This document shows, one piece after another, positions 51,001 through 54,000 of a DNA stretch of 64,000 nt (position 1 is its first letter; every line of letters starts with the position of its first letter). Made by a program: the position numbers. Source of the stretch: Escherichia coli O157:H7 (lineage in GTDB: Bacteria; Pseudomonadota; Gammaproteobacteria; Enterobacterales; Enterobacteriaceae); assembly GCF_013167455.1 (NCBI RefSeq), contig NZ_CP038328.1, one strand, 5' to 3'.

Positions 51001-54000
51001 CGATGCGAGAGCTGAAAATGAAACTCTGCGTGCTGATGTTGCCGCTGGTCGTAAGCGCCTGCGGATCAACGCCACCTGCCCCGGTACCGTGCGTGAAGCC
51101 ACCGGCACCTCCGGCGTGGATAATGCAACCGGCCCCCGACTGGCAGACACCGCTGAACGGGATTATTTCATCCTCAGAGAACGGCTGATGGCAATGCAGA
51201 AGCAACTGGAAGGAGCACAGGAATATATCCGTACCCAGTGTATACCGTGATGTTTTGTTATGAGGGTGTTACTGGTAACGTTAAGGTAATTTAACAAAGA
51301 GTCAGTTCCGGACTTTATAGTGTGCTCAGTTCATGGCCAAAAACGATTTCTGTGATAAATATTTTGAATATTATTTACAGGTAAATGGAGTGGGGCACAT
51401 GGATAGAAATATTACAATAGAGAATGAAGTATATGCCCGTATTGTATGGGCAGAGAAGGCAAAAACACGGTAATTCCGTGTGTTGCCATGATACCTGATT
51501 GGCAGAATAGTTGTTTGGTTTTGAGTATATAGTCAGCGTTTTTTGTTCAGTAATTGCTCCCTCAAAAAATAATAAAATAAGGTGATTATTTTTGTTTATT
51601 ATTTAGTTTTTTTTGTGTGTTGTTTTATTGTTTTTGCGTGGTTTGTTTTTTATTGTTATTTCATTAAGGGAAGGTAAATTCAGGATGGCAGTCTGTAGAT
51701 AATCGGAGGTCACTTATGCTACATGATCACGTGGCAGAATGTCTGGAGAAAAAAGGACTGTACCGGAGAGCAGCTGAACGATGGGCAAAAGTGATGGTAC
51801 AGCTAAGTGATGACCAGAAAAGAAAAGTGGCGGCACAGAAACGAGCAGAGTGTTTGCGTAAGGCGCGCCGGACTCCGGTTTCACCGGTGAACCTGACCGA
51901 AATAAAACAAGCGGTCAACAGACTACATTCTGAGTTGGGAATGGGATTTGAAGAGCGGCGGGTATTCCGACGATATAAAGGGACAGGAGAACAGAATACG
52001 TCCGGAAACGCGCGGTCAAAAAAATGCTAAAAAATATCTGAGAGCGTTATTGCCTGTTACCATAAGAAAAAGCGACTTTAGTGGTCGCTTTTTGTGTCAT
52101 ATATAAGTCGTTTAAGTAAACCTGTCTGAACAGGTGCTCTGGTCGTGTTTGTCTTTGTTGGGTACAAATTGAGAATATTTTTCATTAATTAATGAACCGC
52201 CCCGGGTTTCCTGGAGAGTGTTTTATCTGTGAACTCAGGCTGCCAGATCATCGTTTCCGATGGAAGCATAATAAGCTTTTTCTGCTTCTGCCGGAGGAGT
52301 ATGGCCCAGCCTTCCCAGCAATCGTCGATTGTTATACCAGTCCACCCACGTTAGTGTGGCCAGTTCCACTTCTGCACGGTTTTTCCAGCTCTTACGGTGT
52401 ATTACCTCCGCTTTGTAAAGACCATTGATGCTCTCAGCCATCGCGTTGTCATACGAGTCGCCTGTACTCCCTGTTGATGCCAGTAATCCGGCTTCTTTTA
52501 GTCGCTCCGTATAGGCCAGTGACACATACTGAGAGCCTTTATCGCTGTGATGGATGGTGCCAGACGGACGACGGGCCCATTTACCCCGGAGAACACCGGC
52601 AAGTCCCATAACCGCCATGAGACGTGCCACTGTACATCTGGCCACCCTGATTCCTTCCCGTAACAACTGACGCCAGACTTTACGCACACCGTACACCTGA
52701 TGATTTTCATCGTATACGCGCTGTATCTCTCTCTTCAGCCAGTCGTCGTGCTGCGCACGGGCACTGCGTTTATCCGGATGATGTCGCTGTTGCTGACAAT
52801 GGTAATACGTTGACGGGGCAATATGCAGTTCGCTGCATACCGGTCCGACCCCGTACTGCTCACGCAGCTTATCCAGCAGTGGCATCATTTTTTCCAGAGG
52901 CGGTCGAACTCCGCCTTCGCAAAATAAGCGGAAGCCTGGCGAAGGATATCGTTACTGCGGCGCAGTTCACGATTTTCACGTTCCAGCTCTTTCAGACGCT
53001 GACGTTCAGCGCTGGTGAGCCCACCATCACCGCCCCCGGTATCCCGCTCATGCTGGCGAACCCAGACACGCAGAGTCTCCGGCGTACAGCCAATCTTTGG
53101 GGCAATGGAACAAATTGCCGCCCACTGTGAGTCATATTCATCCTGACTTTCCAGAACCATACGAATCGCCCGCTGACGGACTTCGGGGGAAAAACGAGTA
53201 TTTTTAGTCATCCTGTTTACCTCTTTCTCAGGGAGTTTAGTCTCCAGGATTTCCGGGGCGGTTCAATCCGCATATTGATAATATATTGACAGGCATCATT
53301 GCTGTCTGTGAAAAATAAGTCTCTACAAACATATAAGGCCTTTTAGCCAGCGTCTTCTTTCAGGTCAGTCGCTGGCTCTTTTTTTATTATGCTGCCGGTG
53401 CATTTATCTCCAGCACCAGACTTTCTATCTCAACGCCATACGCTGCATTTTTTGTAACATCCGTCAGCGTCAGCGCATTCAGTCCCAGTGTCAGACTGTC
53501 TTTTATAACCTGGAATGCCGGGCCAGCCACTCCATTCAGTTTCGGAGTAACCGTGGCACTGCCGGCGGTGAACACCAGCTCCAGCGTCTGCCAGTCGTTA
53601 CCGTAATCGCCGAACTCCCCCAGCTTCGTGTTTCCGGCTTTCCTGTGATGCATCAGATTCACTCTGCCGTCAGTGGTCTGAGTGAAGTACGACATCAGGA
53701 ACGGATTACCGGTACCCGTCATCGCCACACCATCAGGAACGGGAGCATCCGTATACAGATAAATCCCCAGCCCGAACTGATTGTTGGTCAGTGCGCCTGA
53801 CAGGCGGAACTTACAGTTCAGTCTGCCGCCCTGTGTCAGCAGGGTAATTGCGTCATCCACCGGATGCGTCAGGGACCAGGTTTTATTGCTCTGCCTGGTG
53901 ATCTTAAATACACCATCTGACAACTGAATTCCGCCATCCTTAATGCTCCAGCCCTGCGCAGCAGCCTCTCCGGCTGCCGGCAGCAGGGAGATTGTGCGAA

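Follow-up and report, generated by a model that had tools for sequence, protein, structure and literature searches.

Introduction

Inversion by homologous recombination between inverted copies is a general outcome of insertion sequence (IS) proliferation, and it leaves an IS at the inversion end with flanks derived from two sites. IS629/IS1203, a 1,310-bp element of the IS3 family that is abundant in Escherichia coli O157:H7 and Shigella, is the best-studied IS of O157:H7, and both IS629-linked deletions and the excision of IS629 dependent on the protein IEE are established (PMC9943667). We analysed a stretch of 64,000 nucleotides from E. coli O157:H7 (NCBI RefSeq assembly GCF_013167455.1, contig NZ_CP038328.1), hereafter the window, which carries prophage Sp4 (CP-933M) and, between a nanS-p-type SASA esterase gene and pchA, an IS629 copy shortened from 1,310 to 1,073 bp. 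A 3,493-bp inversion within the prophage has one of its two ends at this copy.

The window copy shares with IS629/IS1203 the terminal repeats, orfA, the A6 frameshift site, the ALIL pseudoknot and the second Asp, the Glu and the Lys of the catalytic core; unlike it, the copy lacks IS positions 687-923 and a target duplication. As at inversions made by recombination between two inverted IS copies, the IS stands at an inversion end, whereas here a single copy remains and its partner is postulated to have been lost. IEE-dependent excision (Kusumoto et al. 2011, as summarised in PMC9943667) offers a second parallel: in sister strains the IS is gone together with 7-8 bp of flank, in two different scars, and the IS-free inversion junction of the window shows the same kind of small bilateral loss. 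In contrast to joints with clear microhomology, the junctions at this locus share 0-1 bp, and IEE may have been involved. Like other internally deleted, non-autonomous IS, the copy has intact ends, a dead transposase gene and one possible secondary insertion with a duplication; unlike amplified non-autonomous families, it is essentially a single-locus allele, present in about 100 genomes with one copy each.

The copy itself is already known. It is annotated twice as "IS1203 Family: IS3 partial" in strain Sakai, its coordinates were tabulated by Rump et al. (2011), and neither fact was part of the first-pass annotation of the window. It matters little beyond bookkeeping, and the population detail and the explicit inversion model given below are incremental.

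The 3.5-kb inversion

The flanks of the element are TTAA (52189-52192) on the left and ATCC (53266-53269) on the right. In the orientation of the element the sequence reads ...GCGGAT, the IS, then TTAATTAATG, and the 3-4 bp target-site duplication of the IS3 family is absent (GAT against TTA). The first-pass annotation had remarked on the same flanks and taken them as the mark of an IS sitting at a rearrangement junction. That view was borne out when the window was compared by local alignment with the prophage of O55:H7 strain RM12579 (L004), in which the late genes run in the order nanS-p, holin, endolysin, Rz, pch, ylcI (on the opposite strand) and terminase small subunit, and with three further collinear reference prophages (L005, L013 and L014). 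The window fell into three blocks against L004:

Window 53266 and upward: L004 4443 and downward, reference orientation (nanS-p flank)
Window 48700-52192: L004 4450-7943, opposite to the nanS-p flank
Window 48699 and downward: L004 8052 and upward, same orientation as the nanS-p flank

IS629 is placed exactly between L004 4443 and L004 7943. L004 and L013 have the canonical nanS-p/holin junction, and L004, L005 and L014 the canonical ylcI junction; the window has neither. The target duplication is absent because the IS sits at one inversion junction, with flanks drawn from two sites. The features that define the rearrangement are as follows:

48700..52192, plus strand: inverted phage segment, 3,493 bp, with lysis genes, pchA and the 3′ part of ylcI
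52112-52192, minus strand: ylcI 3′ fragment, last 26 codons and stop, in the inverted segment
48664..48700: IS-free reciprocal junction, joint at 48699/48700, ylcI 5′ fragment joined to the region upstream of holin
53387..55237, minus strand: nanS-p-type SASA esterase gene, 616 aa, last late-operon gene before the IS

The reciprocal junction, which the first-pass annotation had proposed to look for in other copies, was found in the window itself at 48699/48700, where a second IS is lacking. The ylcI 5′ fragment (48664-48699, the first 12 codons, MSTKNRTRRTTT) is joined there to the sequence upstream of the holin gene, and the joint has lost TGTTTC (6 bp, L004 4444-4449) and 108 bp of ylcI (L004 7944-8051). 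The sequence downstream of nanS-p (53266-53386) represents the undisturbed side of the inversion.

Missing duplications can also arise when a simple insertion, unaccompanied by any larger rearrangement, loses its duplication by point mutation or by a small adjacent deletion, and small deletions next to IS629 are documented (PMC9943667). In the four collinear reference prophages the sequences matching the two flanks are separated by 3.5 kb and oppositely oriented, which refutes this explanation and leaves it a negligible chance.

The element, its ends and the 237-bp deletion

The window copy was aligned with a 1,310-bp IS629/IS1203 (L002 301-1610). Its first 686 bp and last 387 bp are identical to that copy at 100%, so that near-identity to the reference element holds over all 1,073 retained bases and the boundaries 52193-53265 proposed earlier are exact. 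A chance match is excluded, because this identity over 1,073 bp is to an IS present in 4,251 of the 5,426 complete E. coli genomes from which all population counts below were taken. The parts of the element are as follows:

52193..53265, minus strand: IS629/IS1203 copy, internally deleted, 1,073 bp instead of 1,310 bp
53241..53265, minus strand: left inverted repeat, abutting the nanS-p-side flank ...GCGGAT
52193..52217, minus strand: right inverted repeat, abutting the ylcI 3′ fragment where the inverted segment has its distal end
52885..53211, minus strand: orfA, 108 aa, intact, with a helix-turn-helix (HTH_Tnp_1, 47.3 bits)
52814..52930, minus strand: programmed -1 frameshift region, with an A6 run at 52888-52893 and the ALIL pseudoknot
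52235..52888, minus strand: orfB, shortened, 217 aa instead of 296, residues 104-182 gone
52579..52580: 237-bp deletion junction, IS position 686 joined to 924

Both terminal inverted repeats are present; they are 25 nt long, agree at 22 of 25 positions and have the 5′-TG ... CA-3′ ends of the IS3 type. The 13-nt IS629 end motif TGAACCGCCCCGG occurs within the window only at these two repeats. The two-frame organisation of the IS3 family is also preserved: orfA and orfB overlap at the A6 run, and the ALIL pseudoknot downstream is intact (Rfam RF01497, 121.5 bits against a gathering score of 50 bits, full model covered).

The in-frame internal deletion claimed in the first-pass annotation, and with it an orfB about 79 codons short and devoid of the first catalytic Asp, was recovered in every particular. 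IS positions 687-923 are gone, i.e. 237 bp or 79 codons (237 = 3 x 79), and the deleted peptide, KVRTT...LWVADFTYV...LEQAL, corresponds to OrfB residues 104-182. In the full-length OrfB (296 aa) the catalytic residues are D136 (WVADFTY), D195 (HHSDKGSQY) and E231 (DNAMAES), followed by K238, with spacings of 58, 35 and 7 (D-58-D-35-E-7-K), the canonical DD(35)E-K arrangement. D136 lies in the deleted peptide; D195, E231 and K238 are kept, and the DD(35)E triad is incomplete. The rve domain spans OrfB 127-223, and the deletion takes its first ~56 residues (OrfB 127-182), lowering the Pfam score from 96.9 bits (model 2-101) in the intact protein to 29.2 bits (model 60-101) in the window copy, below the cut-off of 32.6 bits.

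Since DDE catalysis by IS3-family transposases requires the first Asp, the transposase is predicted to be inactive, as had been supposed earlier. The copy should still be able to make OrfA and, by -1 frameshifting, an OrfAB fusion devoid of D136, which is predicted neither to cleave nor to transfer strands, so that autonomous transposition would be lost. Because both ends are intact, the copy could in principle be acted on by transposase, supplied only from intact IS629 copies elsewhere in the genome. Judged by sequence, the element is IS629/IS1203, and as an individual copy it departs from the type in three features: the full DDE triad, the target duplication and the full length.

The first-pass annotation had allowed for a different reading, a naturally short IS3-family member with a complete triad. 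The preserved reading frame (237 = 3 x 79) is all that speaks for it. It is refuted by the absence of D136 and of the first half of rve, by the 100% identity of the remainder to the 1,310-bp IS629, and by the occurrence of intact copies, missing segment included, at the same site in other strains; its probability is practically nil.

The ends of the 237-bp deletion share no bases, and inspection by eye gave no convincing direct or inverted repeat at the end sequences. A 7-nt string, CCCCGGA, near the left breakpoint recurs in the left inverted repeat; it was dismissed as within chance expectation.

Forms of the locus across E. coli genomes

The IS-free reciprocal junction was found in 293 genomes, at one place in each and in identical form. 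The junction that carries the IS was searched with 500-bp flanks and an IS of either length, and it was found in 257 genomes; in a further 38 the IS is absent from it. These three forms of the IS junction (intact, deleted and excised) and the single reciprocal junction were read directly from the genome sequences, as were the anatomy of the element, the inversion and the exact IS ends against both the inner and the outer flank.

A contiguous 100-bp match to the 237-bp deletion junction was obtained in 101 genomes (106 places), among them Sakai, EDL933, Xuzhou21 and 86-24; nearly all listed carriers are O157:H7 and have a single copy. By subtraction, about 155-160 genomes have an intact 1,310-bp IS629 at the same site with identical flanks. 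Strains TR01 and 4276, which were checked, hold a 1,310-bp copy there with 0 mismatches to the reference and identical flanks. The same pair of forms can be seen in Table S2 of Rump et al. (2011), where the copies of TW14359 and EC4115 are 1,310 bp long, that of Sakai is 1,073 bp long, and all three have the flanks ATATGCGGAT / TTAATTAATG.

Among strains with an empty IS junction, 37 of the Z892 type have lost the IS together with AATTAA (6 bp) and AT (2 bp) of flank, and F6667 bears an independent scar, in which the IS and 7 bp of the nanS-p-side flank are gone. These IS-free forms are excisions and not pre-insertion states, because the IS-bearing forms keep more of the ancestral flank.

The 257 IS-bearing and 38 excised genomes come close to the 293 with the reciprocal junction, and one reciprocal junction is shared by all of the latter; for this reason the inversion probably arose once and predates the intact, deleted and excised forms. 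Since the inversion is common to all three forms of the IS junction, the 237-bp deletion probably came after it, in one O157:H7 sublineage, a point that goes beyond the first-pass annotation. With three forms at one site (intact; 237-bp-deleted; excised, in two scars), the locus is a compact lineage marker.

Proposed origin of the inversion

The history that we prefer, and regard as fairly probable, comprises recombination between two IS629 copies, excision of one of them, and a later loss of 237 bp from the other. One IS629 would have inserted into the nanS-p/holin interval (target GAT) and a second, in inverted orientation, into ylcI (target TAA). Homologous recombination between both copies would then have flipped the segment, leaving each copy with one flank from each original site. 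The second copy would have been lost by imprecise, transposase- and IEE-dependent excision, giving the IS-free junction minus 6 bp and 108 bp; excision of this type is reported to remove from a few nucleotides to >40 kb of adjacent DNA (PMC9943667). The surviving copy would subsequently have lost 237 bp internally in one O157:H7 sublineage; in two further sublineages it would have been excised, taking 7-8 bp of flank with it. What we infer in this history is the two-copy state, the part played by IEE and the succession from full-length to deleted.

Two kinds of observation support the two-copy model. Firstly, the IS junction has undergone imprecise excision twice, in the Z892-type strains and in F6667, and both scars are proven. 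Secondly, IS629-type elements repeatedly strike this neighbourhood. In L013 an IS629 lies 36 bp downstream of the predicted first site with an AAC duplication; in TR01 (L006 10457-11766) and 4276 (L015 5783-7092) the Sp4 holin gene carries, in its 5′ part, independent IS629-type insertions that differ in position and orientation and have the duplications GTA and GGT, the one in 4276 being a divergent IS subtype. The span of the match in F6667 suggests an IS in its holin gene as well. In L014 an IS stands next to ylcI (between terS and ylcI), and in L005 an IS stands at the nanS-p 3′ end.

A model of the postulated two-copy state, 2,230 bp long, was searched against the 5,426 genomes. High-coverage matches were returned for L013, L014, 4276, TR01 and F6667, and these were rejected, as unrelated nearby insertions had been merged by the search.

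Several points weigh against the proposed history. A second, inverted IS629 at the reciprocal junction was found in 0 of the 5,426 genomes, and likewise 0 of 5,426 have an Sp4 that lacks the inversion and carries an IS precisely at one or the other predicted site; the two-copy intermediate is a postulated one because no genome keeps either arrangement. The order from full-length to deleted may be otherwise, since gene conversion seems to take place among IS629 copies (TW14588) and the intact copy could in principle be the product of such repair. Finally, the 237-bp deletion, which lacks microhomology and flanking repeats, gives no mechanism as judged from its end sequences.

The same failure to find a second copy in 5,426 genomes favours a one-step inversion from a single IS629, in which a transposition intermediate, through both its ends, or a resident copy, through one of its ends, attacks sites on the same molecule so that the IS ends become joined to two sites 3.5 kb apart. 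The leftover chromosomal ends would lose 6 bp and 108 bp by resection and then undergo end-joining by host enzymes or by IEE, and a second copy would never have existed. Such a reaction would yield the observed structure, in which the IS ends stand exactly at L004 4443 and L004 7943, duplications are lacking and a single IS-free junction is lossy, in one event instead of three, and IEE has end-joining activity in vitro (PMC9943667). Against it, elements of the IS3 family transpose by a copy-out-paste-in route via a circle, in which the ends abut and attack one target; inversion by non-concerted integration is not a documented outcome for IS629 in the literature consulted; and microhomology-mediated joining finds weak support, with at most 1 bp shared at the IS-free junction. 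The final sequence cannot tell the one-step from the two-copy model. On balance we consider the one-step inversion unlikely, though it is the main alternative, and recombination between two copies with loss of the partner is retained as the preferred history.

Possible mobility of the deleted copy

The deleted IS629 might be a functioning non-autonomous element that is being carried to new sites by intact IS629 transposase acting in trans. Consistent with this, both of its ends are intact, and in STEC799 (L012 1001-2073) and NJS001 (L008 3365-4437) a 1,073-bp copy with its own 3-bp TAT duplication is flanked on one side by the ure cluster and on the other by a phosphoethanolamine transferase gene; NJS001 has two deleted copies in all. 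The copy of STEC799 is 100% identical to that of the window; the site is empty in 2014C-3061 (L010), and an intact O157-type IS629 was not seen there. On the other side, this is the only such extra site found among the 106 places in 101 genomes, and in a look-up of the exact shortened OrfB the Sp4 context was present in all 24 contigs that were read. An ordinary insertion followed by gene conversion fits the copies of STEC799 and NJS001 equally well, and IS3-family transposases are generally described as preferring to act in cis. Spread by trans-mobilisation is accordingly regarded as doubtful.

At the ure-side site, a 95%-identical IS with an ATA duplication lies 1 bp away in an O103 strain (L011), and 2014C-3061 (L010) has an IS 90 bp away; the site looks like a local insertion hot spot.

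In strain TW14588 (assembly CP111095) the 237-bp deletion is found in three IS629 copies, one of which was examined. It lies at the Sp5 site (L009 3365-4437, in the Stx2a prophage) with a CTTT duplication, and about 80 genomes, Sakai among them, have an intact IS629 at this site. The copy was rejected as a transposed element, as it keeps the private single-nucleotide polymorphism of the site (A at position 1297); its sequence indicates a gene-conversion patch or an assembly error. In the plasmid collection the sole match to the deletion junction was a 287-kb EDL933 record labelled as a plasmid, whose size suggests chromosomal sequence.

A broader proposal is that the deleted IS629 could spread its deletion by gene conversion, could occasionally move in trans, and could through its OrfA and dead OrfAB damp the transposition and excision of IS629 in the O157:H7 sublineages that carry it. 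We think this improbable as a whole; if true, the damping would contribute to lineage differences in IS629 activity. The locus does offer cases, from natural strains, of IS629 being excised imprecisely and of IS copies apparently converting one another.

Prophage setting and neighbouring features

Positions 24393-64000 of the window align with Sp4 of Sakai (NC_002695.2, reverse strand) at 99.56% identity. The genes carried by the inverted segment, in addition to the ylcI fragment given above, are as follows:

49020-49226: holin
49914-50447: endolysin
50726-51250: Rz
51003-51188: Rz1
51716-52030, plus strand: pchA

In this arrangement the intact holin, endolysin and Rz/Rz1 genes (48700-51250) are inverted relative to the late operon and would point against the Q-dependent late transcript. 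The survey of Sakai prophages scores the Sp4 lysis genes as conserved ('+'), and in its passages on inversion and lysis this inversion is absent; lysis genes lying antisense to the late operon would be a defect of Sp4 additional to those named in that part of the survey text. Within the inverted block pchA turns its 3′ end toward IS629, and the IS is therefore not positioned to drive this gene.

Mismatches to Sakai are clustered, with 14 within 75 bp of Rz (50908-50982) and about 150 in the tail genes (28000-36000); the remaining window is nearly identical to Sakai, and mismatch clusters of this sort are typical of recombination patches between sister lambdoid prophages. The terminase small-subunit gene nu1 is split by ISEc8 (IS66 family, 45565-48014), with its N-terminal fragment at 47994-48269 on the minus strand, and this insertion matches the published Sp4 defect. 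Searches with Rfam gave, beside the phage tRNA cluster (55727-55976), a match to the small RNA STnc100 at 55460-55650 (138 bits) and, in the prophage early region, one to the sok antitoxin RNA at 60701-60875 (105.6 bits). A tRNA-Ser (tga) gene at 24418-24505 stands at the prophage boundary, and the chromosomal, non-prophage part of the window contains a cspA-type thermoregulator 5′ untranslated region (5170-5592, 150.9 bits).

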